From a virus, in the IMG/VR virus record IMGVR_UViG_3300033571_015173, positions 23,815 through 87,814 of that record: DNA of 64,000 bases. One strand, 5' to 3'. Position 1 is the first letter of the stretch. Each line of letters starts with the position of its first letter. The notes beneath the pieces are model-generated. The model searched no databases. It saw only the letters and a program-made list of their open reading frames with translations, and was not told where the DNA came from. This document shows, in pieces, positions 4,735 through 33,200 of this stretch. Both the position numbers and the translations under genes were made by a program.

Positions 4735-4778
4735 AGTTCAATCGTAAATAACAACAACAAGCCCAAGGAGGGCACATC

Positions 4779-5552: not shown

Positions 5553-5558
5553 TCTAAC

Positions 5559-5599
5559 TGCTAAGGCGTAACATTGGTTGCGTCTTAGCAATCTTTTTT
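5559..5599 (+). terminator. rho-independent terminator after ssb
   Basis: TGCTAAGGCGTAAC-ATTG-GTTGCGTCTTAGCA stem followed by a T run. Confidence 0.7.
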
Positions 5600-5700
5600 G
5601 TGGTAGCTTGCGTAAGTGGTGCGAACTAGACATTAGAAACCCGTTTGGAGAGGGGTAACTCTCAAAGCAGACCCAGCAAGCTATCACAAATCGGAGACTT

Positions 5701-6012: not shown

Positions 6013-6018
6013 TTAAAT

Positions 6019-6384
6019 ATGTCCAATTGGATCGCCTCGGAAATTACCGTTGTAGAAGGTAAGTTAAAGGCCAAAAAGGAAAGAAGGGAAAAGCAAATTC
6101 AATTCCAGCAAGGATTTCTTAAAGTCCCCATTAAGAATACTAAGGTTAAGGGGATCTCTCATATCGAAAGACTAAATGGAGAGGTTGATAATCTGCACAT
6201 GAGATGTCAGCTAATCAAGAAAATTTTTGAGATTTATAGTGCGGTGTTCAAAGATGACTCTGCGTTCGAGGAATACTTGACAATTAAATATGGAAGTTCA
6301 ATTCTATCGGAGTATACTCTGAGTGAGCTACAAGAAGTGGAGGGCTATTTATGTCCCGTGCCAGTGAATTCCACAGCGATTTGA
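6019..6384 (+). CDS. hypothetical protein
   Basis: ORF track. Confidence 0.55.
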   Translation: MSNWIASEITVVEGKLKAKKERREKQIQFQQGFLKVPIKNTKVKGISHIERLNGEVDNLHMRCQLIKKIFEIYSAVFKDDSAFEEYLTIKYGSSILSEYTLSELQEVEGYLCPVPVNSTAI

Positions 6385-6546
6385 ATAGCTTTAGAAAGAG
6401 ATGGCCTGATTGTGCCATATTCGCTATGACCCCAGATCAATTTCAGATGGGGTGGGGTTCGCCAGAAGCTGTGGGTATGGCAGCCCTTGTTGGATTGCAC
6501 AATCCTCTGCTCTCGGACGAAGAGTTAGCAGAGTATGAGGCATCCT

Positions 6547-16019: not shown

Positions 16020-19000
16020 ATGGCTCTAGTTTTTGACCCCAGTACTGGTGGGTATTCAGTTGCGGGCCACCCTCGCAGTTTGTATCCAAGAAAGAATATT
16101 CTGACCAGCCAGGGCTGGGACCAGATGGCTCTATCGGATTACGAGCCCATTATTGACCCGACAACGGGTGAGCCTATCCGGGACCACTACGGAAACCCCC
16201 AATACAAGCAGGTTAGAGACACAGGAACTGCTATCACGGGTCGGTTTCCAGTGGTGGGAAGCTCCTATGCGACAGATGAATATGCCAATTTAAGCCGCAG
16301 TCCTGGTTTCTTGTCTGACCTGTGGAGAAAATTACAAGGGGCTAGCTCGGGCATTGGATCGGAGCTGAAGGCAGATCTCTATGGTCCCCCAGTCAAATCA
16401 GCCCCTCCAGCATGGCCAATTGATCTTGGCATCGGAGGACAACCAGCAACAATGGCTGATTATTTCGCAGCACTTAAGGCGCAAGATCAACCTATTCCTT
16501 TCGCCGGTGGGGGAATGGTTGACAAGCTAGAAGCGCTGAAGGCACAAGAAGTGTCTGGTGTTACTGCGAAAATGAAAAAGATTGAAGATGTCAAAAACCT
16601 AGAAGCAAGAGTTAAGGCGGCAAAAGCGGCTCTTCAGGACAACCTTAAGCAGGCATATTACCGTAAAGTTCTGGAGCAAAGATTCCCAGGTATCAAACTA
16701 GATGGAGTTCCATTAAATACCGGATGGGATATAGAAAAGGCTCTGGGTTTACCTGCTGAACAGTTAGTAGGTATGACTAAAGAGACTGGTCTAAGATCTG
16801 CCCTTTCTGAGGCTTTAAGACTAAGAAATCTTGCCCCTGCCGAACCCGGTAAACTGTCTGATCAAGTTCTTGATCCTCGCCTTAAAGCTTTAATTGAAGC
16901 TGAAAACATCCCACGAATGGATGCTGCAGGCAACGATCCAAGTAGAGCGGATCTTGCTTTGCTTCTAGAGCATGGAATAGCAGATGAAGAGGATCTACTG
17001 GCATTTCCAAAGGCTCGGGCTGCATGGAAAAGAATGAAGGCGAAACAAGCGGAAGATATTGAATTCAATAAACGGCTTGCAGCTCAAGGTGGTGTAGTAG
17101 AAGATCCAAGACTTTTTGATAATCCACATACGGTATATGGTCCAGGAGGACCTATACCCGTAGCTCCCAGAGAAATTGAACAAATTCCGCAATGGTTACA
17201 TGATGCAGCACACCCAAAACCTACTGCTGATCAAGTAGGCGATGCCAAGGAAGTAGTTAGAGAACAGCAAGAATATAACCGGGATATTAGAAGACTGCTT
17301 GCTGGTTCGGCCAAGATGGAAGGTTGGGATCCTGTATCTGCTCCTTACCATGTAGTTCAACAAAGACTAACGGGTGCTAAGAAAGGAGATAAATTTCCGG
17401 GTGGAGTTGTCTACAATCCTGAGCATTTACAAGGGATTTTAGACAATCGTGCGATTATTGCAGCACATGCTCTCAATGTGCCAGAACGCAGATTTACTCC
17501 TCACATGCCAGTTTTAGACTGGTGGATGAATCCCAGGACTCAAGAGAGTAATTTTCAGAATCCAGATTGGCAGAACGATTATCCCAGGAATATCACACTT
17601 CCTGACGGAAGAATTGTCCAGACTGCTTATACAGGAGAAGAAGTTCTAGCCGATATTAATCGGCAAATTGCTTCCCCGTATGGATTTGAAAAGGCAGGTG
17701 TTCGGGACTTAACCCCTGGACAAATGCAAGCTATCTATGACCAGAAGAATCCACTAGAAACTGCTGAATTAGAGCTTAAGCAACATGCCTATGATTCCCA
17801 AATGGGAATTAAGAATGCTGGTCTTCAAGCTTATGGCATTCGAGATCCTGAACTGGCGTTAAGAGAGGGAGGTTATATTCCTAGCCTCAAGCATTACGCC
17901 AAGAAGGATAAGTCTGGGAGATACATTAACTCCTACCGGACTAATGTTGAGGCTAGGAACGCAGCCAAAAATAACATTCTGTTCAATCAAGCCTTGCTTG
18001 ATACTGAGATTGGAAGGACTATCCAACCTTTCTGGGCAGAACGGAATCAGATGCTGAAGGTCGATGCGAATAGACCGGAATGGTGGGGGAACACTTTATC
18101 TCAGTCTGGAACGAACTACGATTACGCCATCCGCCCAACCCCTATCGATGTCGAGAAGCAGAAAGCTACCAGACAGCTCTTCGATCTTTACAGATATGGA
18201 GGCCAGGGGCAGACAGCTTATCACGATCCTTTGGGTGTCTACAATAAAGCTGGAGGCCGTCCTGCATTTTCTAGTACTGGTCTGCTTAAGCCTGGTTCTA
18301 GCGTTCTTGATGCTAGTACTTATAGTTTAGGTTCTGACAGGCTAGGAGTTGCATACCCTCAGTCTGCATTTTCTAGCGCTGGTCTTGCTAATGCAGTAGA
18401 AACTGTTCCCTCAACATGGGCTCCAGACGGTCGGTATACTCCAACCGATCCTGCATGGATGGGGCTGGAATCTTATCGTCCATCGCGAGCTATTAGAACT
18501 CAAGCTCCTTCGATTCTTGATCAGTTTCAGGGAATGACTCGGATAAAGGATCAATTATCCAGGGCTCCTGGTCCTATTGCTCCTGTTGTATTACAACAAC
18601 TTCTACCTGAAGTACGTCAAGGTCCTGCATCAACTTTAATTCCAGGTAGAGCTCTTGCCGAACTTGGAATTAATCGTGTTACTGCTCGGAATACTGAAGA
18701 TCCTTGGGCTGTAGTTAGAAGAGCTGGGAAGTATAAGCGTACTCCTTTCCCTCTTGGGGCGGAAGATCTTTCTACTCCTGCTACTCGCGCCTATGCAGAG
18801 AATGCCATGTTCCAAAGCACTAAGCCTTTTTATCCATCTGTCATGGATAGGAGTGCTAAGTCTTTGCTACCCCAGCTTCGACCTTTAGAGTCTGGTAGAG
18901 AAGCCTATCTCAGACTTCAAGAAAAGAATGCTGATGATATTGCAAGATATGGTGTTGCTACTTCTCCTATGTTTAATGCACAGGAGTATGTTGACAGCCA

Positions 19001-20777
19001 TTACGGTGGCTTTCGTCCAGAAGAGAAAGCTGCAATCGCAGCATCGATGAATGAGTCGGCACTTGATGCAACTCTCGGTGATAGTGCGAGTAAGGCTCAG
19101 AGAATGGCTCGTAATTTGGGCGATGCTCTTGGCCTTCAAGCTCGGGCTGACATCGGTTGGGACCCAGCATTGAAAACCTGGCAAGGAGTTCAAGGTAAGA
19201 AAGTTTACGATGTCGGATCTACTCAGAGAGCACAACTAAGAATACAAGGTTTGCAGGAGGAGCTTGCAGATCCAGCTAATCAACTGCAACGAAAGTTGTC
19301 TCCCCAGTTTGATAGCATGATGAGACAAAAAGAGGAGACAATTGCAAGCTTAGGAGCTTTTATCGCTCCCAAGACTGCTCTTCCTCCTTATTCTTCGGTT
19401 CCTGCTAATCGTCCAGTTCTGAGACAGATGTTTGCGGAGGCTGCTAATACTGGAATTGGCCCAGAGTTTAGACAGTTTGATGCTAGAGGCTTAGATCAAC
19501 AGCAGAAAGTTAGTGAATTACTTGATGTTGTTATTGCTAACGAAGAGTTAAAGACAGGAAGACCAACTTTGATTCCTCCAGTCGAGCCTATTCGGATGCT
19601 GGAAGAATCAGAAAGGTTGCCTTGGCAAAGTACTAAGAAAATGTGGACTTCGGGATCTAATGCCAGAGGTTTGAGCTCCGTTCAACCGAAGTTAGCATCT
19701 CATCTTATGGAGAAGGGTCTGCCAGGTATCTTAGCCCTAGCTTACGATACTAAGCAACCAGTCTTCCAAACCCCGTCTCTAGCTTTTGGAGATCGTGGGA
19801 TCAAGTTAGCTGGAGAGAGAGATGCTCTTATTTCCCCGGAGGATGTAACAGAACTCTATCGTGAGACTCTACCTGAGGGTCATGCAAAATATGAAGGCAT
19901 GAATTGGAGAAGTGGAGCTCCCGTCCAGTTCGAGCCTGCAGGTCGCTATAGCGCACCAAATGAGCGGGATCTTATTGTTCCTGAGAAAATGATGGTTGCA
20001 GAACGCGATCCTCAAATTCAAAAGGCTAGAGATTATCTAACTGCTCATGGTAGACGCTGGACCTTTGGGGAGGAAAGCCCTAGAGAAGCCGGTGTTATTG
20101 GCAAGATGCAAGCTGGTAATCTGGGTGCTCTAGAGATGGTTGAAGAAGCGAAGAATCTCAATATCCAAGACTCGATGCTTCGTAGCCTGCATGGTGGGAG
20201 TTATGGATTTACTCCATCCCCACTCTTAAAGCAATTTGTTTCAGATAATCAATCTGAAATACAAGCGGCTAATGAAAGAAGACAAGCTCGTAAACAGGAA
20301 GCTATTATTTCTGCTGCACAACCTGAGAAGTTTGGAGTTGTTACTCCTGCTTTCTCCGATGACTATCTTGGCAGCAGGCTCACTGGGAAGAGCACGGCAA
20401 CCAGTCAAATCTTAAATGATGCGCTAGAGGCGCAAAGAACTACCGTGGCAAAAATCGAAAGACCTGATTTCTATATTGATCCCGGAGAGACAAGACAGAT
20501 TGGATTTGTTGATCAAGAAAGGAACTTTGTTGAACCGGGTAGAACCAATCTAGAGATGGCGCAAGTCCAAGAAGTTCGAGAACCAAGAGTAAGATTAACT
20601 TCTCCATCTGATCCTAGCGATTTAAGAGCTAGGGCTGCCGCACTACTTGAGAAGAAAGCAGCGAGATCTCAGTCAACCTATCAACCTGATTTAGGTCGGG
20701 ATGTCCGCATTCAAAGACCAACAACTGATGTAGCTGAAGATCTCCTGTCTACCATTCGCCGCACTTATCGGCGATAA
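16020..20777 (+). CDS. very large (1585 aa) hypothetical protein, possibly an internal virion/ejection protein
   Basis: long uninterrupted ORF followed by a terminator; no recognisable catalytic motif. Confidence 0.75.
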   Translation: MALVFDPSTGGYSVAGHPRSLYPRKNILTSQGWDQMALSDYEPIIDPTTGEPIRDHYGNPQYKQVRDTGTAITGRFPVVGSSYATDEYANLSRSPGFLSDLWRKLQGASSGIGSELKADLYGPPVKSAPPAWPIDLGIGGQPATMADYFAALKAQDQPIPFAGGGMVDKLEALKAQEVSGVTAKMKKIEDVKNLEARVKAAKAALQDNLKQAYYRKVLEQRFPGIKLDGVPLNTGWDIEKALGLPAEQLVGMTKETGLRSALSEALRLRNLAPAEPGKLSDQVLDPRLKALIEAENIPRMDAAGNDPSRADLALLLEHGIADEEDLLAFPKARAAWKRMKAKQAEDIEFNKRLAAQGGVVEDPRLFDNPHTVYGPGGPIPVAPREIEQIPQWLHDAAHPKPTADQVGDAKEVVREQQEYNRDIRRLLAGSAKMEGWDPVSAPYHVVQQRLTGAKKGDKFPGGVVYNPEHLQGILDNRAIIAAHALNVPERRFTPHMPVLDWWMNPRTQESNFQNPDWQNDYPRNITLPDGRIVQTAYTGEEVLADINRQIASPYGFEKAGVRDLTPGQMQAIYDQKNPLETAELELKQHAYDSQMGIKNAGLQAYGIRDPELALREGGYIPSLKHYAKKDKSGRYINSYRTNVEARNAAKNNILFNQALLDTEIGRTIQPFWAERNQMLKVDANRPEWWGNTLSQSGTNYDYAIRPTPIDVEKQKATRQLFDLYRYGGQGQTAYHDPLGVYNKAGGRPAFSSTGLLKPGSSVLDASTYSLGSDRLGVAYPQSAFSSAGLANAVETVPSTWAPDGRYTPTDPAWMGLESYRPSRAIRTQAPSILDQFQGMTRIKDQLSRAPGPIAPVVLQQLLPEVRQGPASTLIPGRALAELGINRVTARNTEDPWAVVRRAGKYKRTPFPLGAEDLSTPATRAYAENAMFQSTKPFYPSVMDRSAKSLLPQLRPLESGREAYLRLQEKNADDIARYGVATSPMFNAQEYVDSHYGGFRPEEKAAIAASMNESALDATLGDSASKAQRMARNLGDALGLQARADIGWDPALKTWQGVQGKKVYDVGSTQRAQLRIQGLQEELADPANQLQRKLSPQFDSMMRQKEETIASLGAFIAPKTALPPYSSVPANRPVLRQMFAEAANTGIGPEFRQFDARGLDQQQKVSELLDVVIANEELKTGRPTLIPPVEPIRMLEESERLPWQSTKKMWTSGSNARGLSSVQPKLASHLMEKGLPGILALAYDTKQPVFQTPSLAFGDRGIKLAGERDALISPEDVTELYRETLPEGHAKYEGMNWRSGAPVQFEPAGRYSAPNERDLIVPEKMMVAERDPQIQKARDYLTAHGRRWTFGEESPREAGVIGKMQAGNLGALEMVEEAKNLNIQDSMLRSLHGGSYGFTPSPLLKQFVSDNQSEIQAANERRQARKQEAIISAAQPEKFGVVTPAFSDDYLGSRLTGKSTATSQILNDALEAQRTTVAKIERPDFYIDPGETRQIGFVDQERNFVEPGRTNLEMAQVQEVREPRVRLTSPSDPSDLRARAAALLEKKAARSQSTYQPDLGRDVRIQRPTTDVAEDLLSTIRRTYRR

Positions 20778-20798: not shown

Positions 20799-20827
20799 GG
20801 GTGTAGTTAATCTACACCCCTTTTTTT
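20799..20827 (+). terminator. rho-independent terminator
   Basis: GGGTGTAG-TTAAT-CTACACCC followed by T7. Confidence 0.75.
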
Positions 20828-21437: not shown

Positions 21438-21813
21438 ATCAGCAGAAGACCTCAAGAAGTTCAAACGTCAACCCAAGTTCAGCGAGCATCGATTGATTAC
21501 CGTACCAGTTGCAGATAGCGATCTCCTCTTTGATGCCGAAACAAGACCTCCATACATTTTTTATATTGAAGGTCGAGCTTGGTTTCATATTCTAGGTTTC
21601 AGCTTTCCTGGGTTTTGGACAGGAAGAATTAGCCTGGTAGATGCTACTCATGCTTTTAAGATCTTGGAGATTCTTTCAGCTCAACCCGCACAGAAGAGAT
21701 TTTATCTTTTGGGTGGAGCTCTCTTACACAACTATGGTAGTCGTAAAGTCTATCAACTTTGGGTAGGTAATCTAGACAGTTGTGACGAATTAAGGGTGGT
21801 GACCTATAAATGA
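21424..21813 (+). CDS. hypothetical protein
   Basis: SD GGAG; overlapping ORF chain. Confidence 0.6.
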   Translation: MEKLKSAEDLKKFKRQPKFSEHRLITVPVADSDLLFDAETRPPYIFYIEGRAWFHILGFSFPGFWTGRISLVDATHAFKILEILSAQPAQKRFYLLGGALLHNYGSRKVYQLWVGNLDSCDELRVVTYK

Positions 21814-22070
21814 AGAAAAGAATTCAGACAGTATTAGGGAGCACTCCAGTTAAGGTGACTGTGATAGCCAGCGACAAGAGAAGTACTAGCTATTTCATTT
21901 GCACCCTAGAACAATTCCAAGAGGCTAAACCTACCATCATAGATGGGCTGACAACAGTTGTAACCGAGGATGTAGCCACATACTTCGGACAAGAAGTCCT
22001 TAACCTAGCCTATAGAATGCAAGCTGGGGAGGTGATTTCTTTTTTGGCTGAATTAGTCCAGGAGATCTAG
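21810..22070 (+). CDS. hypothetical protein
   Basis: ATGA coupling. Confidence 0.55.
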   Translation: MKKRIQTVLGSTPVKVTVIASDKRSTSYFICTLEQFQEAKPTIIDGLTTVVTEDVATYFGQEVLNLAYRMQAGEVISFLAELVQEI

Positions 22071-22075
22071 CATCT

Positions 22076-22099
22076 CCAATCCAGGGGCAAGTATCTTCG
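22076..22099 (+). promoter_or_regulatory. conserved phage motif copy 6 (upstream of Gp157 and the module array)
   Basis: CCAATCCAGGGGCAAGTATCTTCG, 31 nt before ATG 22131. Confidence 0.55.
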
Positions 22100-22130
22100 A
22101 TCTAAACCTAGAAAAACAGGAGCTAAAAGT

Positions 22131-22664
22131 ATGAGCAGTTTATTCGAGATTTCCGATGCAATTCTTCATCTGAATGACCAGCTGGATAATCTGGATGACG
22201 AAGATCTAGATGATGAGGCTCTTGCAACTATTCAAGAGTTTTTGGCAGGACTTCTTAAGGAAACAATTAATCAGCGGGACCATAAGCTGGATAATTATGG
22301 AGCTCTTATCAGAGAAATCAAACTCCGAGCTAGTGTTAGAAAGCAAGAGGCTGAAAGGTTGATTAAGCTTTCAAGATTCGATGAGAATAGAGCTAATCGG
22401 CTTGAAGAGTGCTTGTTCAAGTTCCTGGCTGCTCACAATCTGAAGAAGCTCGATACTACCAGATTCCGATTTTCTGTTTGTGTCAATGGTGGAAAGCTTC
22501 CCCTGGTACTCGATGAAGAACTAGAACCAGATGACTTCCCAGAAGAGTACACTTATCCAGTGACGGTAGTAGACAAAGTGGCTATTCGAGAAGCATTAGA
22601 AGCAGGGAAAGAACTTACCTTTGCTAAACTTGGTGAACGAGGATCCCACTTAAGGATCAGATGA
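22131..22664 (+). CDS. Siphovirus Gp157 family protein
   Basis: MSSLFEIS start, KLDNY...I, coiled coil, DKVAIREALEAG...HLRIR end. Confidence 0.8.
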   Translation: MSSLFEISDAILHLNDQLDNLDDEDLDDEALATIQEFLAGLLKETINQRDHKLDNYGALIREIKLRASVRKQEAERLIKLSRFDENRANRLEECLFKFLAAHNLKKLDTTRFRFSVCVNGGKLPLVLDEELEPDDFPEEYTYPVTVVDKVAIREALEAGKELTFAKLGERGSHLRIR

Positions 22665-22819
22665 AACTAGAGGTTCAAAGGTTGCGCGGCGGATCCTGGC
22701 ATTTTAAGTCCTGGTTCTGCCGCTCTGCATATCATGGCTGCTTCATTAAAAGCGTTCCAACTAGTGATGTTGGTTTTCGGATTCTAATTAGGAGGCGAAA
22801 TGGAAAGCTTTATCAGTAA
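22661..22819 (+). CDS. CLec/FGE variable module 1 (52 aa)
   Basis: [52 protein letters not shown]; ATGA overlap with Gp157. Confidence 0.75.
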   Translation: MKLEVQRLRGGSWHFKSWFCRSAYHGCFIKSVPTSDVGFRILIRRRNGKLYQ

Positions 22820-22958
22820 AATTGTGCGTGGTGCTTCCTGGGCGTGCAATCTCACTATTTCCTACTCGGCTTTTCGTGAAGAGGTTGGTCCAGTAGCTAG
22901 AGATGATTCTATTGGTTTTCGGATTGCAATCAAGGAGAAAAATGAAAAGACCTGTTAG
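22800..22958 (+). CDS. CLec/FGE variable module 2 (52 aa)
   Basis: [52 protein letters not shown]; SD GGAGG. Confidence 0.75.
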   Translation: MESFISKIVRGASWACNLTISYSAFREEVGPVARDDSIGFRIAIKEKNEKTC

Positions 22959-23097
22959 GATGATGTTGCGTAGTAACCCCTGGAGTATTTGCCTCTGGGG
23001 TCGCTCGGCTTGTCGGCTTGACAACGATCCCAATAATTATGATCCTGATATCGGTTTTCGAGTTGTGATTGGGAGGAGAAATGAAAAGACCAGTTAG
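22942..23097 (+). CDS. CLec/FGE variable module 3
   Basis: [51 protein letters not shown]; SD AGGAG. Confidence 0.75.
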
Positions 23098-23242
23098 TAG
23101 ATGGCCTTTGTTACGTGGTGGTTCCTGGCATTTCAATCCCGATAACTGCCGCTCGGCGTACCGTAGCGGAAACAATACCCTCTATCGGTTTAATAATGCC
23201 GGTTTTCGGATTGTCAAGGAGGGAAATGAAAAGACTAATTAG
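23081..23242 (+). CDS. CLec/FGE variable module 4 (53 aa)
   Basis: [53 protein letters not shown]; SD GGAGG. Confidence 0.8.
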
Positions 23243-23378
23243 GAAGCTGTCTTTGTTACGTGGCGGTTCCTGGAGTCTTGAGACTAATTTTTGCCGTCCC
23301 GCGTTTCGTGGTGGAGACTATTCCGATTACCAGGATAATGACATTGGTTTTCGAGTTGTGATTGGAGGCAAAAAATGA
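23226..23378 (+). CDS. CLec/FGE variable module 5
   Basis: [50 protein letters not shown]; SD AGGAGG. Confidence 0.8.
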
Positions 23379-23536
23379 AAAAGTTTATCAGTAAAGCAAT
23401 CCGCAGCGGTTCTTGGTATAGCTATGCTGATTCTAGCCGAACGGCTTATCACGATCTGCAGGATGTCTGGAATCGGAATAACTATATTGGTTTTCGGATT
23501 GTAGTTGCAAAGAAAAAGAATGAAAAAGCAATCTGA
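23375..23536 (+). CDS. CLec/FGE variable module 6 (53 aa)
   Basis: [53 protein letters not shown]; SD GGAGG, ATGA overlap. Confidence 0.75.
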   Translation: MKKFISKAIRSGSWYSYADSSRTAYHDLQDVWNRNNYIGFRIVVAKKKNEKAI

Positions 23537-23690
23537 ATTCCATAAGATATTGCGTGGTGGTTCTTACCTTTTTGATCCTGAATACTGCCGGTCTGCATAT
23601 TGGTATGTTGGCCGCCTTGTATATCGTGATCACCACTACGGTTTTCGGATTGTTATTGGAGGAGCAAGCCATGAAAAGCAGAAGCTTTAA
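23520..23690 (+). CDS. CLec/FGE variable module 7
   Basis: MKKQSEFHKILRGGSYLFDPEYCRSAYWYVGRLVYRDHHYGFRIVIGGASHEKQKL. Confidence 0.75.
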   Translation: MKKQSEFHKILRGGSYLFDPEYCRSAYWYVGRLVYRDHHYGFRIVIGGASHEKQKL

Positions 23691-23871
23691 GAGTCCTATT
23701 CTTCGTGGCAACTCTTGGCTGAATAACGCAAAGAATTCCCGTTCAGCTTGTCGTACTTGGTATGACGCTACACTTGCACTTAATAACTTTAGTTTTCGAG
23801 TTGTTGTTAGAGGAGTGAGCCGTGAAAACATGGAAGACAGCGAGGGGCAGCGCTTGGAACAGCAGACCTAG
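23671..23871 (+). CDS. CLec/FGE variable module 8
   Basis: MKSRSFKSPILRGNSWLNNAKNSRSACRTWYDATLALNNFSFRVVV...; SD GGAGG. Confidence 0.75.
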   Translation: MKSRSFKSPILRGNSWLNNAKNSRSACRTWYDATLALNNFSFRVVVRGVSRENMEDSEGQRLEQQT

Positions 23872-23959
23872 GAAGTGCCGTTCGGCTTCCCGAGAAAATG
23901 ATGCCCCTGATCAAGATAATTACTGTTATGGCTTTCGAGTTGTGATCAATAAACCATGA
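23822..23959 (+). CDS. CLec/FGE variable module 9 (45 aa, GTG start)
   Basis: MKTWKTARGSAWNSRPRKCRSASRENDAPDQDNYCYGFRVVINKP; SD GAGGAG. Confidence 0.7.
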   Translation: MKTWKTARGSAWNSRPRKCRSASRENDAPDQDNYCYGFRVVINKP

Positions 23960-24093
23960 GTCAGAAAATAGCGCGTGGTAATTCCTGGTTTGGAAATCGT
24001 ACTTACTCTAGATCAGCCTCCCGCAATGTTAGCATCCCCAGGTATGATGAAGATATTTTTGGCTTTCGTATTGTGATCAAAGATAAACCATGA
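23956..24093 (+). CDS. CLec/FGE variable module 10 (45 aa)
   Basis: MSQKIARGNSWFGNRTYSRSASRNVSIPRYDEDIFGFRIVIKDKP; ATGA overlap. Confidence 0.75.
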   Translation: MSQKIARGNSWFGNRTYSRSASRNVSIPRYDEDIFGFRIVIKDKP

Positions 24094-24350
24094 GTCAGAA
24101 AATAGCGCGTGGTAATTCCTGGTTTGGAAATCGTACTTACTCTAGATCGGCCTTCCGCAATGTTAGGACCCACAGATATGATGGGGAGATTTTTTTTGGC
24201 TTTCGGATTGTAATGAAGAAAAACCATAAAGTAAAGACAATGCGTGGTGGATGCTCGGGCAACGACATAGAATATTGTCGCTCTGCATCTCGTACTATGA
24301 GCGGATCACACAATGCCAGTTTGATTATCGGCCTTCGAGTTGTGAAATGA
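24090..24350 (+). CDS. CLec/FGE variable modules 11+12 fused in frame (internal ATG 24213)
   Basis: two RG..S-x6-.RSA-x14/15-G[FL]R units in one 86-aa ORF. Confidence 0.75.
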   Translation: MSQKIARGNSWFGNRTYSRSAFRNVRTHRYDGEIFFGFRIVMKKNHKVKTMRGGCSGNDIEYCRSASRTMSGSHNASLIIGLRVVK

Positions 24351-24493
24351 AAAACGAAAAAGAAAAATCAATCCGCAGCGGATCCTGGGTTGCTAATGAC
24401 GATCTCTGCCGCTCACCCTTTCGTTCAAGAGAATCTAACAAGTACTGGGACAACTACATTGGATTCAGGATTCTTATCAAGAAAAAGCCATGA
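24347..24493 (+). CDS. CLec/FGE variable module 13
   Basis: MKNEKEKSIRSGSWVANDDLCRSPFRSRESNKYWDNYIGFRILIKKKP; ATGA overlap. Confidence 0.75.
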   Translation: MKNEKEKSIRSGSWVANDDLCRSPFRSRESNKYWDNYIGFRILIKKKP

Positions 24494-24648
24494 GGTACAA
24501 AAAGAAGATACTAAGAGGTGGAGGTGGGACTATTATTCCCAAGTACTGTCGGTCAGCCTATCGAGTCAACCATTATCTTCCTTACAGCTTTGAGCGATTC
24601 TTTGGATTTCGGATTGTTGTTAGAGGGACAGGAAGTGAAGGAACTTAA
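24490..24648 (+). CDS. CLec/FGE variable module 14 (52 aa)
   Basis: MRYKKKILRGGGGTIIPKYCRSAYRVNHYLPYSFERFFGFRIVVRGTGSEGT; ATGA overlap. Confidence 0.75.
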   Translation: MRYKKKILRGGGGTIIPKYCRSAYRVNHYLPYSFERFFGFRIVVRGTGSEGT

Positions 24649-24790
24649 GTCTATACGTGGTGGTTCTTGGGGTGATTATTCAGCGTTCTGTCGGTCGGCT
24701 GTTCGGAATGACTATCACTCCAACAATGACCATGATAACCGTGGCTTTCGGATTGTAGTTAGAGAGTACAAGAATGGAAGAGCAAATTAA
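24635..24790 (+). CDS. CLec/FGE variable module 15 (GTG start)
   Basis: MKELKSIRGGSWGDYSAFCRSAVRNDYHSNNDHDNRGFRIVVREYKNGRAN. Confidence 0.75.
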   Translation: MKELKSIRGGSWGDYSAFCRSAVRNDYHSNNDHDNRGFRIVVREYKNGRAN

Positions 24791-25511
24791 GTACAAGTCT
24801 CAGCGTGGTGGGTCGTACTATAACTTTCCCTGGCCCTATCGTTCGAGTTACCGCATTAGGAGTAACTCCAAAGATGCTGATTCTCTTCTCGGTTTTCGGA
24901 TTGTAATCATTGTTCATTTATTCGTGAGAACAACTATGCCTGAGTTTCAAATTGAGATGGTGAATATTCCTGCTGGAGAATACGTGATGGGTTCTCCAGA
25001 CAATGAACCTGGTCGCTTCTCTGATGAAGAGCAACACCTGGTTAAGCTTGAGGGTTTCAGGATGAGTAAGAATCTAATTACTCAGAAAGAGTGGAGGTTT
25101 GTTGCCAGCTTGCCACAAATAGATATTCCACTGAAACCTAGCCCCTCCTATTTTACGGGGGACGATCTGCCGGTGGAATCTGTTAATTGGTATGAAGCAA
25201 TCGAGTTCTGCAAGCGTCTTTCAATTTACCTGAATGAGGAGGTAACTTTACCCTCTGAAGCTCAGTGGGAGTATGCTTGCAGAGCAGGAACCACTACTGC
25301 CTACTACACTGGAGAGACATTGGATCTGACGGAGGCGAACTTCTGGGCTGAAGGAAGTCCGAAGAAGACCACCCCGGTAGGAACTTATCCTCCGAATGCC
25401 TGGGGACTGCATGACATGCACGGCAATCTGTGGGAATGGTGCCTAGATGATTGGCATGATACCTATGAAGGTGCTCCCACTGATGGCAGTGCCTGGATTG
25501 ATCCAGAGTAG
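24774..25511 (+). CDS. circularly permuted FGE-sulfatase (SUMF1/CLec-fold) protein: module 16 fused N-terminally to a core lacking its own C-terminal RGGSW...GFR segment (possible internal start 24936)
   Basis: EMVNIPAGEYVMGS, PVESVNW, LPSEAQWEYACRAG, PNAWGLHDMHGNLWEWC and GAPTDGSAW, then a stop codon. Confidence 0.9.
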   Translation: MEEQIKYKSQRGGSYYNFPWPYRSSYRIRSNSKDADSLLGFRIVIIVHLFVRTTMPEFQIEMVNIPAGEYVMGSPDNEPGRFSDEEQHLVKLEGFRMSKNLITQKEWRFVASLPQIDIPLKPSPSYFTGDDLPVESVNWYEAIEFCKRLSIYLNEEVTLPSEAQWEYACRAGTTTAYYTGETLDLTEANFWAEGSPKKTTPVGTYPPNAWGLHDMHGNLWEWCLDDWHDTYEGAPTDGSAWIDPE

Positions 25512-25679
25512 TACATCGAATATCACATAGTCGGTTGGGCAGGGGGTTAAGACTCCACTAGTGGTCCCTTCCCTATTGGCAGCTAGTTTACTAGTTCTGG
25601 AATAAGTCCAATATGCTATCCGACGAATAACACAGTAGCCTACATGAATAGAAGCTACTGTGTTATTTCTAGTGTTAAA

Positions 25680-25753
25680 AAAGAACCTCTCAAAGAAAGA
25701 CCTCTCAAAGAAGACCCTCCTAAAGAAAGACCTCTCAAAGAAAGACCTCTCAA
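25680..25753 (+). repeat. ~15-bp tandem repeat AAAGAAAGACCTCTC (about 5 imperfect copies)
   Basis: direct reading. Confidence 0.8.
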
Positions 25754-25756
25754 CCT

Positions 25757-26173
25757 ATGTCACATTTTGATGATTTACGATATTTCGCAAAGAGATTCAG
25801 TGACGAATGGACCAAAGAATTTGACAAAAAATTTGACAAGGAGGATGAACTCCAACCCCCTGTAAAGCCAATGTCGTATTACGATGAGCTACGAACTTAT
25901 TTGAGCACACCTAATGAGGAGAACAAAATGGCTAGCGAGAAAAAAGATATTATCTTGGCGGAAAAGATCTATCGGGCGGATTACAGACCTGATGATCCGT
26001 CTAAGTATTCCCGGTTTAATTTAAGTGATGTTCTGCTTTATCGAAGTATTTCAGAAAACCTTGAGAATGAAATCGAGTCTATCGTTAAGCCTGGAGTCAG
26101 TTTGGTTAAGGTCCAGTTCGCGATTACGATTCTTGAGCACATCCCACCAGAGCCAAAAGAAGAAAATTTCTGA
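25757..26173 (+). CDS. hypothetical protein
   Basis: ORF track. Confidence 0.5.
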   Translation: MSHFDDLRYFAKRFSDEWTKEFDKKFDKEDELQPPVKPMSYYDELRTYLSTPNEENKMASEKKDIILAEKIYRADYRPDDPSKYSRFNLSDVLLYRSISENLENEIESIVKPGVSLVKVQFAITILEHIPPEPKEENF

Positions 26174-26298
26174 ATAATCGCTCAACATAAGATAAGGTGA
26201 GGGGGTACATTGCTATCCCCCACTTTATTTTCGTTTGAAAGTGTATTGCGTTTTTTTTCGTGTCATGCTACAATTTTTGTAAATTTGGAGGTTTTATC

Positions 26299-27144
26299 AT
26301 GTCAATTCAGACTGAAAGTGCAACTTTGATGTTGCCGGGATGCTTCCAGCGTACCATTCCTTACCTGGAAACCCTGCCTGAAGTAGAGGAGACTTCGACC
26401 TATCATCCTTTGACCCATATCCAGTTGATCACGCTGATCGAATCAAAGATTCAAACCCTGGATGGTTATGAACTGGTTCCGTATACCTGGAATGCTCCTA
26501 TCGAGGAGTTAAAACCAGAGGACCAGGTGAATGAAGAAGGTGTAAATCGTTTTAAGACTATTACTCAGGACTTTGCAATCGGGACGAATCGAGCAGGGAC
26601 TACATTATTTGGCATTGCTCAACTGCGGGCTACCAACGCTCAGAACCCTCACCAGCATTTGGCGGTAGGGTTTCGTAACTCGACCAACAAGCAATTCGCG
26701 GTCGGGTTTACTTGCGGAGTCAAGACTTTAATTTGCAGCAATCTCTGCATGTCTGGTGACTTTGTTGGGTATGCCAAGCACGTCCACAAGGTTGATTGGA
26801 ATGACTTGATCGATCAAGCATTCGAGGCTGTTCCCCTTCGGTATGCAGATCTGACTGAAAAGATTGAGGGCTTGCGCGAGAAGAAGTTTACTGATTTTGA
26901 CTCCGCAAAAGCCTTTACTCTGGATGGAGTACTCAACAAAGCTATTCCTCCCAATATGGTGCAGGATGTCTGGAAGTACTATATTGAGCCGACTCATGAA
27001 GAGTTTGCCTCTGATGGTTGGACTCAATACCGTCTCTTACAAGCACTGACGGAAGCCTACAAGAAGGAGAACTCAGTGTCTCAGTACTTACAGCAAACCA
27101 TTTCCATGAACCGAATGTTCGGGTTTATGCCCAAAGAAATGTGA
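26299..27144 (+). CDS. DUF932-like protein
   Basis: GFRNS...G...LICSNL and H motifs; SD GGAGG. Confidence 0.65.
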   Translation: MSIQTESATLMLPGCFQRTIPYLETLPEVEETSTYHPLTHIQLITLIESKIQTLDGYELVPYTWNAPIEELKPEDQVNEEGVNRFKTITQDFAIGTNRAGTTLFGIAQLRATNAQNPHQHLAVGFRNSTNKQFAVGFTCGVKTLICSNLCMSGDFVGYAKHVHKVDWNDLIDQAFEAVPLRYADLTEKIEGLREKKFTDFDSAKAFTLDGVLNKAIPPNMVQDVWKYYIEPTHEEFASDGWTQYRLLQALTEAYKKENSVSQYLQQTISMNRMFGFMPKEM

Positions 27145-27163: not shown

Positions 27164-27187
27164 CCAATCCTGGGGCCTCTATCTTCG
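27164..27187 (+). promoter_or_regulatory. conserved phage motif copy 7
   Basis: CCAATCCTGGGGCCTCTATCTTCG, 34 nt before ATG 27222. Confidence 0.55.
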
Positions 27188-27221
27188 ATTTGTCAAAATG
27201 CAAATACCTGAGGCTAGTATT

Positions 27222-28295
27222 ATGGTTGCAAAGAAAGAGAACCCAGCTATCGAAGTGGAAGTGATGACCGAACGCAGTTATCAGTCTCCGGTTTCCGAGG
27301 AGGTCAAGCAGTTAATGATGCACCCCGCTATGACTAGTGCTACAACTACTGTTGCACTAGGGCAGATGATTGCTATCAACACCAAGCCCGCTCCCTATCA
27401 TGGATATTTCCTGAAGGCGACAGATGCAGCACTTTCTGGCTGGGTATCTGAATATCAGCCGAACTACACACATCAATTCGCTGGACGAGCGGGACAGCCT
27501 GGTAAGAAGGAACTGGGATACCTATTTCATGGGCTGGCAGATGATACTCTTGGGATTTCAGCCGACAAGTTCCCAGCTCCAATGATCCAAGTGCTGGGCC
27601 ATATTGGACCTTTCATTGAGATTCAAAGAGGCAATGCAAAAGAATGGGCTCCTCCCATCGGATTAGATGGCAAGCCCTTGACCGGAAAAGACGGGATCGA
27701 GATTCGTCCTGGTGACTGGGTTGGCGAATATCAGTTGGGAGGAAAGAATCCTCTCTATGACTATATCAAGAAGCAGGGTATGGCTTCCTTGCGATCTGTT
27801 TATTGGATCTTCCTGTGGGAGAGAGTCAATGGCAAACTGCAGCCAATGCACAGACTGCCCCTAACTCTTCCAATTCATGGATCTGCTGCTCGCTCGCTGG
27901 GTATGAGCTTAGTGCAATTTCGTAGCCAGTGTGCTACGTTATTTGCCACTCTAACTGAGCAGCCAGTGAAGACGAACTGGAGCGACCAGTTCTATGCTAA
28001 TTTCCTGTTCATTCCGGTACTTCACCCGGAAGATCAAGGTGAAGGCAAAACCAGTCTCTGTACCTGCATTCAAAGCTTCAGTATTATCCCGATGCTAAAC
28101 GAAGAGCAGATTTCGGCTACTCAATTCTTTTATGCACAAGGACAGCTAGATTCCCTTATGGGATCCTTTGCGGAAAAGTCGGACTTTCACCGCATCATTG
28201 CACTACCCCCTGCCTCAATTGAGGCGACAATTGAAGGGGACATGGGCGATGAATTTCCTACAGCTCCCTTGATGCTAGAGGGTACGGTAGAATAA
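27222..28295 (+). CDS. DUF5895-like cyanobacterial/phage protein (possible ssDNA-binding or recombination protein)
   Basis: RSVYWIFL...PMHRLPLTL..HG motif; lies between DUF932 and the exonuclease. Confidence 0.35.
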   Translation: MVAKKENPAIEVEVMTERSYQSPVSEEVKQLMMHPAMTSATTTVALGQMIAINTKPAPYHGYFLKATDAALSGWVSEYQPNYTHQFAGRAGQPGKKELGYLFHGLADDTLGISADKFPAPMIQVLGHIGPFIEIQRGNAKEWAPPIGLDGKPLTGKDGIEIRPGDWVGEYQLGGKNPLYDYIKKQGMASLRSVYWIFLWERVNGKLQPMHRLPLTLPIHGSAARSLGMSLVQFRSQCATLFATLTEQPVKTNWSDQFYANFLFIPVLHPEDQGEGKTSLCTCIQSFSIIPMLNEEQISATQFFYAQGQLDSLMGSFAEKSDFHRIIALPPASIEATIEGDMGDEFPTAPLMLEGTVE

Positions 28296-28680
28296 AGCGG
28301 TACATGTGATTCTCCTTGAGGATGGGTGACTAAATCGCAAGAAATAGTCACCCTTTTTTGTCTATCAATCATCATGAAATCATTAGAAGAAATCGCAATA
28401 ATTACAATCGATCGATGTTGGTTAATCATCGAAGAGTATTCACAAGAGCTAGATTTATTGCCTCCCGAAGATTCCACTTTTATTTGGGGGACTGCGGAAT
28501 TATTTGGAGGGTATCTCTCAAATATGATCCAAGGAAGATGCTCATTAGCTGAGTCAATCGAATTTGATCTGAATGATTGTGTGATGACTCGGCTCAGAGA
28601 TGTCAAGACCATCTGGAAAAAATGTAGGGCTCTAAGAAGTGGATAAATGCTAGAATATCAACAGTTTACTACTGTTGATC

Positions 28681-29706
28681 ATGCCTAGCAAATTACCAAA
28701 ACCTAGAATTGGACGAATCTATGATACCCCTTGGGGACCAAGAGCTTCTGTCACCTCAATCATTGAAGCGACAGCCCCAGTTAGTGAGAGGGCGGCCCTG
28801 GAGAAGTGGGCGGAAAAGCAGAAGAAAAGAGGAAAGCCTACTTCTGCAAAGGACGCTCAAGAGAGAGGGACTGCAGTTCACGCTTTAAGAGTTTTATATC
28901 TTGAGGCGAAAGAGAGAGGGGACTCAACTGACATCATGGATCTAATTGCGTTGCTAAAAATAGCAGATAAAGGCGCAGATTTTATCCAAGAAGTCTATGA
29001 TCTTTTTGTTCAGCTGGTTCCGTATTATGACAACTACGGAGATATTTTCTGGTTAGAAAAGCCAACAGCCCATCTACTTAGGATAGAGCCTGGAGCAAAG
29101 AAATATCTCAGCAAAGATGAGAATGGAGAAGAGAGAGGCTTCCTTTCGCATCCTGATTTTGCTTACGCTGGATGCCCCGATGATATTGTCGTGCTCAACT
29201 ATAAAGGAGAGCCAACAATTACCTTGAATGATCTTAAGACTTCTAAGCGTGCCTATAGAAGAGATAGACCACAACGACCAATGAATGGGGTCTATGCAGA
29301 TGCAAAGAAAGAACTGACTTTAATTACGAATGCTTTGCAAGAGGCAAAGGAAAAAGAAGGGATTGGGTTTTTCACAGAAGAAGAATTAGAAGCGGCTACT
29401 GCATTACATGCCGGAAAAGCGATGAAAGAAGTGAAGGCTTATAGAGAAGCTTCTGCAGGTCATCACTCTTTCAAGAAGTGCTGTATGCAGATTGCTGCTT
29501 ATCGTCCACTAGCAGAAGCTTGCCTGGGAATCAAAATTCCTAAGCTAGCTATCACTGTCACCAGTCCAGGAAGAAAACAGTTTTTCCAGCTTTCTCCCAG
29601 AGAGATGGTAACTGCTGAAGTCGAGTGGAATAAAAGATTAGAACAATTTGTGGGAGAATACAGTGACGGATTACAGAACTTCGCTAGAACTACAACAACT
29701 TCTTAA
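28681..29706 (+). CDS. PD-(D/E)XK exonuclease
   Basis: SVTSII, RGTAVH, YAGCPD, NDLKTS and MQIAAY motifs. Confidence 0.8.
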   Translation: MPSKLPKPRIGRIYDTPWGPRASVTSIIEATAPVSERAALEKWAEKQKKRGKPTSAKDAQERGTAVHALRVLYLEAKERGDSTDIMDLIALLKIADKGADFIQEVYDLFVQLVPYYDNYGDIFWLEKPTAHLLRIEPGAKKYLSKDENGEERGFLSHPDFAYAGCPDDIVVLNYKGEPTITLNDLKTSKRAYRRDRPQRPMNGVYADAKKELTLITNALQEAKEKEGIGFFTEEELEAATALHAGKAMKEVKAYREASAGHHSFKKCCMQIAAYRPLAEACLGIKIPKLAITVTSPGRKQFFQLSPREMVTAEVEWNKRLEQFVGEYSDGLQNFARTTTTS

Positions 29707-30073: not shown

Positions 30074-30276
30074 TCAGAAAATTCTTGTTTTTCTGACGGT
30101 GTAAGAGTATCATGGGAGAACAAAAACAAAGAAGCCAGTGGGGACTGGCTTCTAGCGGGGTACAGGTGTGCGCGATTCGGATTTTTCTGCTCGGACAAAT
30201 CCTGAGTGCCTGATTGATCAGGGACTACAATCTAGCATACACTACCTCTCCAAAACTTGCAAATCTGGAGAAGGAC

Positions 30277-33200
30277 ATGGTAGTAGAGGTTTATGCGCCA
30301 GTTGCTATTAGAGGCTTTGCGTTTGAAGTCAACAGATATGTCAGGAACAAGCAAGTTCTAGTCGATTCAGAATTCCCTCATGTGATTCTGAATTCCAGCT
30401 ACACTCGGATTGAAGGGACAATTCATGATGTAGCGAGGGAGATCCAGCAAGGACATGCAATCTGTGGATCTCTTTTGAAGCAAGGGGGCAGAGCAAAGAA
30501 GACTGATTACTTCGATGGGATTAACTGGCTAGTTATTGATATAGATAACAAGACCCCCGGAAGAAAGAAAGGCGAGAAAACAGAGATCTATGATCGTAAT
30601 CACTCAAGACATGTTTCCATTGCGGGTGTTCTTCAAAACCCATTCGTCAGATCTTATGCCTCTCTGATCTACACTACCCCTTCTCATGATCCACAGGAAA
30701 CGGGAAGAGATTGCTTCCGTATTATTTTTTGCCTTTCAAGGCTGATTGAAGATCAGAAATTAGCGTCAAAGTTAATTGTCAATCTTCAAAACTTTTTGAT
30801 TAATGAGGGATTCGATCTGGATGTGGTTTGTAAGGATCCATCCAGACTTTTTTATGGGAATGATCAAGCCATCATCCCATTAATCCAGGATGTGGGATTG
30901 CCAGAATTCTTCATCGATGCTGCAATTAAACAGCTTGAAGAAGAAGCTAAGATCGACTATGAGGCCAGAAGTCGCAAGCCCATATTCCATGAAAGATCTA
31001 CAGATGGAATAGCATTTGAGCACCTCCCAGAGATTGAGCTGGTTCAGTATATTGAGCAAGCTCTGAATTGGGTTAATGCTGATTCATACGATACCTGGTT
31101 TCGTATTGGTGCAGCACTAAAGTCTGCGGAACAGAAACTAGGATCATTGGCTTTCCAGTTGTGGGATGATTGGTCGAAAAGCTGTCCATCGAAGTATGAT
31201 GCTGCAGCAACTCGAAGAAAGTGGGATCAATTAAATAGCTCGGGAATCACCTTAGGTACTCTCTTTTTCTTTGCAACTAATGCAGGGATGGAGAAGACAG
31301 GACTTAAACAGTTCCTGCGCAATCAACGATTCCAAAGTAATCAGATTGCTAGACCGCAAAGAAATAGAGCTCACTTCCAAAGTCTGATTACAAAGATTCC
31401 CGAAGTGATTTCTTTTTTGCAGGATGACACTTTAGGTGTTGCATACGAAAAGCTAACTGATGCTAATGATGATTTCTTCATTTTTCCCTCCAGTACAAGA
31501 TCAGCCTTTGGAGTTTATTATCCCCACCCCACCGGCGACACCCCTCTTAAGCGGGTCAAGCTAGTTAAAGCTGACCCCAGCTCCAGATGGAAGAGTGTAG
31601 ATTCCACTACTTCCTTGGTTCCATATTATCTTTCTGAGGCTCTTGCTGCGATAGAAAGCGCAAGGAATAATGGATCGAATGTTAATTCGATTCTGGTAGT
31701 AGAAGAACCGGAAGTGGCAGCATTACTAATTAAGTATTGTCACACTCCGGTTATTTCTTTGAGTGAGCCCGGTCGTGTGGATTGGATCAGGCTTGCAGTT
31801 ATGTTGAAAGAAAAGAATCTGTTCCCTGTGTTTATTCCAGGTGATTTTAAGTCTCGCGATACCGTGAGGCTTGATGAGAGACTGGAAAAAATCCGTTCTG
31901 AATTTCACGGGCAAGAATGGCCATTTCTTTATTTGCCATTCAAATCAAGTAACTTCAAAGCAATGAAAGATGATGAACTATCAGAAGACTCAGAAAGTGT
32001 TGAATTGCCTTTTGGGGATGATCCCGTGGCAGATGCCTGGGGTCATATCGGCGGAGCTGCTGCAACTGCCAGTCAAGAGTACATTCAATCGTTAGAAAGT
32101 TCACTCACTGCCTCTATTAGTACCCCAAGAGGGGGACATCCCGAGCTACCCAAGAAGACTGTTGCCTATGCCGCAGATATTAAGGAGCTCTGTGAATCTT
32201 ATCTAAGATGGGATTCCGCAACTAGGCAGTGGATGGGCTATGACTGGAAGAAGCCTAATCAATGGGCTCCTGTTAGCTCCGAAACAGTGATGCGGGAAGT
32301 TATTTCTTCTCATCTTGAAAATCTAGGAATCGAACTTAGTTTGAATTCAATGGAGCAGATTGCTTCTATCCTCAAATACAAGCTAGAAGATCGGAACTGG
32401 AATACCTTTGGAGTATATATTCCTTTTGCAAATGGGGTATATGACAAGGATGCAAACACTTTTCTGAGCCACTCCCCAAGACATAAGCTAGTGTGGCAGA
32501 TGCCACATGAATTTACCCCTTCTGACAAAACAAGAGAAGAGCTAATTCAAGACTGTCGCATCATTTGGGATTGGCTGGTTGAAAGTGTTCAGAATGTGGA
32601 AGTAGCCGTTCTTATGCTGGCTTATCTGGCAGCTATTATTCGCAACTATACTGAACTTCAAAAGTTCATGATGTGTGTTGGCAGGCCAGGGTCAGGGAAA
32701 GGAACCTTTCTTAGATTAGCAGCGGCTCTAGTTGGGAAGGGCAACTCTTGCTCAACCACACTATCGGATTTATCGAGCAATCGATTTACGATGGCGAAGT
32801 TGATCAAGGTTCCTCTCATTCTGATTGGAGAAGCTCAAAACTGGATTCACGATGTAACGGTACTCAAAGCCTTAACAGGCCAAGATGTGAATTCAGTTGA
32901 GGTTAAAGGAGTTCAGCAAACCCCTGAGGATGATCAAGCGGCTAGCGGTCTAATCCTAATGGCTGGAGAAAGGATTCCAGCTACAAAGGATACAGGTGGT
33001 CTGCAGAGAAGGCAGATTGTAGTTAACTTCAAGCACAATCCCAACATCGGGCCAGTCAGAGACTTAATAACTATAGGTCCGAATGGAGGGATTACTGGGG
33101 AGTTTGCTCCATTTATTCCTGCTTTTTTTAATTTGATCCTGTCATTTACTAAGGAGGAGATTTTCTATTTGATTAAGAATGCCTCTAAAATCCTTCCTGA

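Follow-up and report, generated by a model that had tools for sequence, protein, structure and literature searches.

Introduction

The FGE-type lectin fold is the standard scaffold that diversity-generating retroelements (DGRs) hypermutate to obtain binding diversity. The prototype DGR variable protein is Mtd of Bordetella phage BPP-1; in another, Treponema denticola TvpA (2Y3C), the variable residues lie within the last ~40, between an RGGSW and a GFR motif. FGE-fold sensor domains are numerous in cyanobacteria, where they are attached to kinases, caspases and STAND NTPases. Shufflons and invertible tail fibres (R64 pilV with Rci; Mu Gin, P1 Cin) combine a constant part with one of several end-pieces encoded side by side, and switch among them when a recombinase inverts DNA site-specifically between inverted repeats. 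Borrelia vls and Neisseria pilS consist of arrays of variable cassettes with conserved flanks that adjoin an expressed copy, the silent cassettes lacking translation signals. Here we analyze a viral locus that can be compared with all of these. It lies in a 64,000-nt stretch of DNA (the window), bases 23815-87814 of the 87,814-bp virus record IMGVR_UViG_3300033571_015173, which is rated complete and has direct terminal repeats. At 22661-25511 of the window, 16 tandem modules of ~140 bp each encode only the last segment of the FGE-sulfatase/C-type-lectin (CLec) fold, next to one scaffold gene for the rest of it. We put at about even the chance that this array is a stored repertoire of binding tips, free of reverse transcriptase (RT), that complement the one scaffold in trans.

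The locus has its fold in common with the DGR variable proteins, and its loops have the Asn-Asp-Tyr-Ser, NNY-codon composition of DGR variable regions (VRs). It differs from DGR systems in having no RT, template repeat or accessory gene. Whereas the variable segment of a DGR target is the C-terminus of its scaffold, here it is encoded 16 times, mostly in separate genes, and the genome stores diversity instead of generating it afresh. As in the shufflons, alternative end-pieces for a constant part are stored side by side. An inversion switch was considered and rejected: the modules have no flanking inverted repeats and all lie on the + strand. No recombinase family appeared among the neighbouring open reading frames (ORFs) that were scanned, in a scan not aimed at recombinases. 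Like vls and pilS, the array has been remodelled by recombination, in this case between strains; unlike their silent cassettes, every module has a start, and most have a Shine-Dalgarno (SD) sequence or a stop-start overlap. PvdO (5HHA) shares the FGE-sulfatase fold as one complete canonical chain, whereas the phage protein ends before the last segment. A survey of FGS domains describes canonical and DGR-linked forms only (PMC7159879). We found no description of such arrays, or of modules attached by frameshifting, in open-access papers or bioRxiv, and the array in the window is a well-preserved member of an apparently undescribed class.

Results

Organization of the array and the scaffold gene

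The array comprises the following genes, numbered by unit (u1 to u16).

22661-22819, + strand: u1, 52 aa
22800-22958, + strand: u2, 52 aa; strong SD, AGGAGG
22942-23097, + strand: u3, 51 aa; loop 1 one residue short; loops replaced in a related strain (protein P0017)
23081-23242, + strand: u4, 53 aa; an identical protein (P0005) is gene-called on public contigs
23226-23378, + strand: u5, 50 aa; matches PF03781 positions 214-254 with 28.2 bits
23375-23536, + strand: u6, 53 aa; ATGA overlap with u5; strain variant P0006
23520-23690, + strand: u7, 56 aa
23671-23871, + strand: u8, 66 aa, with a long acidic tail
23822-23959, + strand: u9, 45 aa, GTG start; strain variant P0013
23956-24093, + strand: u10, 45 aa; recent duplicate of u11
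24090-24350, + strand: u11 and u12, a double-module gene of 86 aa in one frame
24347-24493, + strand: u13, 48 aa; ATGA overlap; strain variant P0008
24490-24648, + strand: u14, 52 aa; ATGA overlap; loop 2 one residue long
24635-24790, + strand: u15, 51 aa, GTG start; every one of the 12 loop-2 codons is NNY
24774-25511, + strand: 245-aa gene with module 16 (residues 1-44), a 15-residue linker and the FGE-sulfatase/CLec scaffold (~60-245)

Each module consists of three anchoring segments (RGGSW, CRSAxR and GFRIV) and two hypervariable loops, in the pattern RGGSW-x6-CRSAxR-x12-GFRxV, with GFRIV the typical ending. An original prediction, made from the letters of the window, had counted 16 units with exact spacing in 13 and a deviation of one residue in three; both counts hold, unit 3 being one residue shorter and units 11 and 14 one longer. 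The 16 GFR(I/V)-type blocks are spread over 22772-24891 and share the + strand; a search of the whole window for this block gave 19 matches (15 in the array) compared with 2.4 expected. The loops are nearly unalignable, and the mean column identity of 37% comes mostly from the scaffold positions. True formylglycine-generating enzymes are marked by a copper-binding cysteine pair and a substrate groove; the modules have at most one conserved Cys (in CRSA), which is absent in 6 of the 16.

The reading frames rotate irregularly along the array, giving 13 single-module mini-genes (45-66 aa), one double-module gene and one fusion, so that 15 of the 16 modules lie outside the scaffold gene, spread over 14 small genes. 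The predicted separate encoding of the modules holds for the 13 singles, and fails for u11 and u12, which share an ORF, and for u16, which is fused to the scaffold.

The core and the modules occupy complementary parts of the PF03781 (FGE-sulfatase) profile. The core matches positions 4-208 of 255 (E = 1.5e-38, 133.4 bits, with a cut-off of 23.3) and ends in ...GSAWIDPE; the modules match positions 213-254, i.e., after the end of the core. This search had been proposed along with the original prediction, and besides the core it places u5 above the cut-off, with u15 (22.6 bits) and u11-12 (21.5 bits) just below; u1 and u4, taken alone, gave no match to the profile. The complete 245-aa ORF matches PF03781 in two stretches (7e-42) and also matches phrog_18508; it contains an internal ATG at 24936, without an SD. 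Because module 16 is fused ahead of the core, the scaffold gene is circularly permuted at the sequence level and the core is not strictly devoid of a VR. The prediction of a VR-less core was therefore right about where the core stops, at PF03781 position 208, and overlooked the N-terminal fusion. The canonical one-chain order, core followed by RGGSW...GFR, does not occur here: the segment lies upstream, once fused N-terminally and 15 times elsewhere. What the window shows is a split array, with a scaffold gene that ends before RGGSW and tandem modules with their own starts and stops in rotating frames.

Gene-like features of the modules

As the original prediction had stated, none of the 16 modules has a stop in its frame; the other two frames have 40 and 86 in total. 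There are 15 starts (13 ATG and 2 GTG), and every neighbouring pair of genes overlaps by 4-50 nt. An SD (GGAG, GAGG or AGGA at -4 to -16) precedes 9 of these 15 starts, compared with 31 of 56 for the long ORFs of the phage and 12-14% for random positions or all ATGs. Of the six starts that lack an SD, four (u10, u11, u13 and u14) share an ATGA with the preceding stop, and u5 and u6 are joined likewise, which bears out the predicted pattern of own starts with an SD or an ATGA overlap. At the 16 scaffold codons, the synonymous (pS) and non-synonymous (pN) differences are 0.62 and 0.20, a ratio of 0.33, while for loop codons pN/pS is 0.80. The conserved Arg, Ser, Ala and Gly residues are encoded by several synonymous codons.

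A second sample of the same study contains a related strain (the sister strain), ~97% identical in the flanks, that keeps the array; its mini-proteins are gene-called on a 14.6-kb public contig. A partial list of its differences inside modules contains 10 synonymous and 8 non-synonymous changes. In the probable source run, Logan contigs match 21500-23978 and 24119-26300 with zero differences, and the only gap in this assembly falls at the 87%-identical u10/u11 duplicate. Run X3 contains a small share of the sequence words, with contigs over only ~24575-24859 of the array and over the conserved core motif.

These data bear on the suspicion, raised as a possible refutation of the original prediction, that the array is decaying gene-end debris or an artefact of collapsed reads. 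The modules are indeed short, repetitive and partly degenerate, and the Logan assembly breaks at u10/u11. Yet the frames are free of stops, the scaffold codons are constrained, a second assembler gives the same array to either side of the one recent duplicate, the sister strain keeps the array, and the design recurs in unrelated contigs (see below). Because of the open frames, the codon constraint, the SDs, the second assembly and the sister strain, we reject both debris and artefact as hardly credible. The sequence comparisons support the conclusion that the modules are under protein-level constraint and have their own translation signals.

Two features of the sequencing data were noted in passing. 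In the probable source run, the u10 loop and the u11 leader are connected at 23985-24112 by a short unitig whose depth is 5.4, compared with ~17 in the flanking contigs; this may reflect a mixed population with one or two units, or k-mer noise. The HDMHGNxWEW stretch of the scaffold (25392-25442) matches dozens of other contigs in all three runs, with a depth of 115-154 compared with 5-17 elsewhere, and thus the samples hold many other FGE-domain genes.

Models of the scaffold and of its complex with a module

By sequence, the nearest solved structure to the 245-aa ORF is PvdO (5HHA, 2e-27, residues 61-243), and TvpA (2Y3C) matches with 6.5e-18. Foldseek returned PvdO (4e-8), human FGE (2e-6) and TvpA (4e-5). 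In AlphaFold2 (AF2) models, the predicted local distance difference test (pLDDT) value of the core is mostly 85-97 (second run).

When the core (residues 55-245) was modelled in complex with u1, the score was 0.96, compared with 0.00 for the best of three controls. Of 80 solved complexes, 58 reach the mark set for this score, and of 110 mismatched pairs, 2 do; these counts are only rough because the alignments were self-made. Three complex runs agree in at least 94% of their contacts, with a partner pLDDT of at least 82. In the model, the GFR residues are buried against core residues 97-102, 134-145 and 219-222, and the first strand of the core (60/62/64) contacts the peptide. The core and a mini-protein, as modelled together, resemble a complete FGE fold.

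Viral and cellular relatives

The scaffold has 78 viral relatives, of which about 21 have several alternative modules per core. They fall into several layouts. L001, L002, L003, L004 and L007 are permuted like the window; in-frame N-terminal modules number two in L001 and L002, three in L007 and four in L004, and each of these cores ends like that of the window. Since L001, L002, L004 and L007 share N-terminal modules and a truncated core, the permuted order is conserved.

In a second layout (L005, L006, L012, L013, L017-L024, L027-L029 and L067), two modules come after the core, first one in the -1 frame and then one in the 0 frame. An in-phase heptamer occupies the core/module junction: G_GGA_AAG, with A_AAA_AAG in L022 and G_GGG_GAG in five loci. 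The slippery sites are as follows.

L012: 6555
L017: 6600
L020: 6555 and 7654
L005: 6627
L028: 6594
L029: 6588
L022: 6588
L003: five serial sites, 6717, 6867, 7011, 7155 and 7305

In these relatives, the 0-frame reading of the skipped module is a linker rich in Ala, Ser, Thr and Pro. The arrangement is a candidate case of programmed -1 frameshifting that would choose among alternative binding tips. These phages resemble the window in having one scaffold, alternative modules, no RT, a viral context and membership of the same family, with 43-57% identity to the core; they differ in that their modules lie 3' of it in the -1 frame and have no start codons, while the modules of the window lie 5' and have their own starts. 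Joining by frameshifting was rejected for the window itself, where only two stray in-phase heptamers occur in mini-genes (u4 and u11), neither joining modules, with one more within the core.

A pattern scan of metagenome contigs revealed L127, L117 and further arrays. In L127 (reverse strand 1600-6480, core 4212-5045), 23 mini-ORFs with their own starts and stops surround an unfused, VR-less core. In L117 (6236-8166), one module is fused to the core through a Pro/Ser linker, and at least 7 mini-ORFs are present. With 62% GC each, these two contigs represent another sequence subfamily (RGGSY...LRTT.R...GFRVVVKRRKP). Within the L127 array we also observed an ORF that, judged by eye, looks like Rad52/Sak. 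The scan further returned arrays of 4-11 FGE-type modules in single or rotating frames (L121, L093, L110, L115, L118, L131 and L138). Lone mini-proteins (P0021, P0024, P0050, P0074, P0079 and P0091) are also on record. A search for relatives of the lone mini-protein P0074 in viral contigs found none, and a three-block DNA pattern had no match in viral contigs. The DNA pattern of u12, used to look for the sister strain, found nothing in viral or metagenome contig collections, from which records near the genome of the window may be excluded.

The cellular relatives present a different picture. Among the 80 closest cellular homologues there was no split, permuted or multi-module form; wherever core motif and module were both detected in these 80, there was one in-frame module. 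The comparison suggests that one scaffold with many tips and no RT is a recurrent viral design reached by at least three routes, with the window representing the separate-gene route, one tip being fused ahead of the scaffold. Of all the lines of evidence, we give this comparison the most weight. We propose tentatively, with slightly more doubt than belief, that the family of about 16 tips binding non-covalently in the window and the frameshift and tandem-tip phages make up one virus-specific family of translation-level diversity systems built on the DGR target fold.

Proposed complementation in trans

Modelling and comparison make trans complementation the best-supported mechanism of the options considered. 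The mini-proteins would be made by coupled translation, and each tip would insert its GFR strand and anchors into a scaffold molecule, completing the fold non-covalently. The loops, which correspond to the ligand-binding face in intact family members, would then provide a panel of about 16 binding surfaces from one scaffold gene, germ-line encoded and made with no reverse transcriptase. The content of the array changes by recombination between the conserved blocks. L127 supports complementation in trans because its scaffold is unfused and has no tip of its own. This mechanism was among the options of the original prediction; it gains from the complex score of 0.96 against 0.00 and from L127, which are evidence from modelling and comparison, the modelling with a reservation given next.

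Several points weigh against trans complementation. Because the intact fold has been solved (PvdO, TvpA and FGE), the complex result may reflect memory, i.e., likeness rather than binding. A number of module motifs are degenerate: SYSA in u2, RSNPW in u3, RGGCS in u12, RGGGG in u14 and YRSS in u16. Module 16 raises a further difficulty. If it docks in cis, module 16 would, being tethered, outcompete the free tips, unless the ATG at 24936 gives rise to a form with the core alone. In two AF2 runs, with alignments of 26 and 54 rows, module 16 was left undocked, with pLDDT below 50 at residues 1-41 and then 1-36; we do not count this failure to place it in the models as evidence against docking in cis. 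Finally, we infer from the locus the translation of the mini-proteins, their docking, their early expression and any target, so that production and binding themselves stand at this level, and even the cell compartment of the targets is read from gene position.

Relation to retroelements

The original prediction described an RT-independent system, and this description stands. We found no match to the RT family PF00078 (E ≤ 1; controls respond) in the complete 87,814-bp genome with its terminal repeats, no RT in 7 related viral records, and no further module-like copy of template type in the genome. A DGR in cis is ruled out by the absence of both RT and template copy from the complete genome. 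When module DNA was compared with 401 sampled cyanobacterial genomes, it gave only generic matches of 50 nt and no near-full module.

The loops nevertheless carry a retroelement-like fingerprint. Of 289 loop codons, 229 (79%) are NNY, compared with 53% in the long ORFs of the genome, and Asn, Asp, Tyr and Ser are the commonest residues. From this fingerprint, the tips probably descend from DGR-diversified genes of cyanobacteria. The modules also differ by T/C changes at third positions of scaffold codons (pS 0.62), which adenine mutagenesis of a single template cannot explain.

The same data allow us to weigh the explanation that a DGR of the host, or of a co-infecting element, acts in trans and rewrites the loops, the array being its set of multiple VR targets. 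The NNY excess and the spectrum of Asn, Asp, Tyr and Ser are what AAY template codons would be expected to give. Against this stand the missing RT and template copy, the failure to find a near-full module in the 401 cyanobacterial genomes, the T/C changes at scaffold third positions, and the differences between u10 and u11, which fall at C, T and G as well as A. The replaced modules of the sister strain, moreover, differ also in their scaffold residues and in number. We therefore give a DGR acting in trans a slim chance.

Turnover of the array between strains

Recombination at the conserved blocks remodels the array between strains. The sister strain has one unit fewer: it skips 137 nt from 24055 to 24193, the joint falling within 16 identical nt at the GFR block, and so encodes P0001, a protein made of the u10 loop, the u11 tail and u12. 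The loops of its u3 are swapped for an equally long diverged stretch (P0017), and a single new module with the u8 tail appears to take the place of u7 and u8 of the window (P0020). Within the window, u10 and u11 are identical over ~90 nt and then diverge in loop 2 by clustered changes that affect all four bases (A, C, G and T).

This turnover suggests another use for the array. It could be a cassette store, in which only the module at position 16 functions and the upstream modules are a reserve, moved to the scaffold by deletion or gene conversion at the GFR blocks. Because each block encodes G-F-R-I/V-V in its own frame, any block-to-block crossover yields an in-frame gene with start, module, linker and scaffold. 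The in-frame fusion of module 16 is consistent with such a store, as is the same layout with 2-4 in-frame modules in L001, L002, L004 and L007. The sister strain lacks exactly one unit, with its junction in the 16-nt GFR identity, and has other modules replaced; the array also lies beside recombination genes (Gp157, the DUF5895/Pam3_Gp34-like gene and the exonuclease). Silent cassettes, however, need no starts or SDs, yet all 15 starts are present and 9 have an SD. One-way deletion would erode the reserve, and in L127 and L117 some mini-genes lie 3' of the scaffold, out of reach of a fusion by deletion. The contigs of the source sample, which drop rare variants, showed no alternative junction between a module and the scaffold. 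We thus regard the cassette store as unlikely. The originally predicted swapping of cassettes by recombination is upheld insofar as the array is remodelled between strains; a programmed switch was not seen.

Genomic setting

The array lies in the replication/recombination block of the genome, among the following features.

3413-3438: match to the 26-nt motif CCAATCCNGGGGCNNNTATCTTCGAT, the third in the window
22076-22101, + strand: promoter-like 26-nt motif CCAATCCNGGGGCNNNTATCTTCGAT, 30 nt 5' of the Gp157 start
22131-22664, + strand: Sipho_Gp157-family gene (PF05565, 1.1e-29), which opens the unit and whose stop codon shares an ATGA with the start of module 1
25626-25667, + strand: perfect 14-nt inverted repeat with a 14-nt loop, then TTATTTC, 115 nt past the core stop
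27164-27189: exact copy of CCAATCCNGGGGCNNNTATCTTCGAT, the next one after 22076-22101
27198-28295: DUF5895/Pam3_Gp34-like gene, 365 aa; cyanophage likeness in a protein atlas (feature score 0.96, structure TM ~0.6)
28675-29706: exonuclease-like gene
30214-33690: D5/PriCT primase-helicase

The motif CCAATCCNGGGGCNNNTATCTTCGAT has 3 matches in the window, where chance predicts 0, and its sites precede genes; it is probably a phage promoter or regulatory site. The copies at 22076 and 27164 flank Gp157, the array, the core and two unknown ORFs, and the Gp157-array-core segment bracketed by them is presumably one transcription unit. A promoter/terminator scan gave promoter-like sites near chance level (13 compared with 9.7 expected) and no + strand terminator within the array. 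The inverted repeat at 25626-25667 is a possible end of the unit; it is missing from the terminator list of the scan because its loop exceeds 8 nt.

Several neighbours of the unit were recorded as well. Just 3' of the scaffold gene, at 25680-25753, lies a 15-nt tandem repeat (AAAGACCTCTCAAAG, 4.9 copies), which translates as a (KERPL)-like repeat within a 73-aa ORF at 25644-25865. Directly 5' of the unit is a 1585-aa ORF (16020-20777), followed by a strong terminator-like hairpin at 20799-20819; this ORF and its small neighbours have no match in Pfam, PHROGs or NCBIfam. The 365-aa ORF at 27198-28295 likewise has no match in Pfam, PHROG or NCBIfam, and one of its structural neighbours carries the name ssDNA-binding protein.

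The closest cellular homologues of the scaffold are cyanobacterial, with at most 58% identity, and blastn of the array against a phage collection matched only the conserved core motif of Microcystis phages (73-75% over 140 nt). On these two grounds the virus is most likely a cyanophage.

Discussion

The replication/recombination setting of the array hints at expression in the early or middle phase and at targets inside the cell. The original prediction had argued for an intracellular role from the absence of signal peptides as well; that argument is weak, because virion proteins also lack them, and gene position is the basis that is left. As a guess, and a weakly supported one, the targets might be host proteins inside the cell, e.g., defence sensors.

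A more direct interference with the host, which was also an option of the original prediction, can be imagined, in which the mini-proteins compete with or mimic the variable segment of host FGE-fold proteins and, as decoys or dominant-negative fragments, blunt defence or signalling. The cyanobacterial affinity of the scaffold (at most 58% identity) and the gene position, with its hint of early or middle expression, are compatible with this. Two published accounts (PMC7159879; PMC10907252) assign FGE-fold domains to cyanobacterial conflict systems, where they serve as sensors or effectors and are in many cases diversified by DGRs, and this counts in the same direction. A folded host domain, however, holds its own covalent segment, so that invasion would need to be co-translational; and such interference leaves unexplained why a VR-less scaffold gene is constantly present (in the window, L117 and L127). 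For these reasons we judge an action on host FGE-fold proteins improbable.

If the scaffold and the tips of the window do assemble in trans, the locus would be a case of natural protein-fragment complementation used to build a repertoire, and it would offer a natural set of scaffold/tip pairs for binder engineering. It suggests a second, RT-free route to diversity on a DGR scaffold, in which a library of tips is kept as mini-genes. Because the design is frequent in the viral relatives and unseen in the 80 closest cellular homologues, it may answer a phage-specific need to bind many targets, whether defence sensors or receptors.

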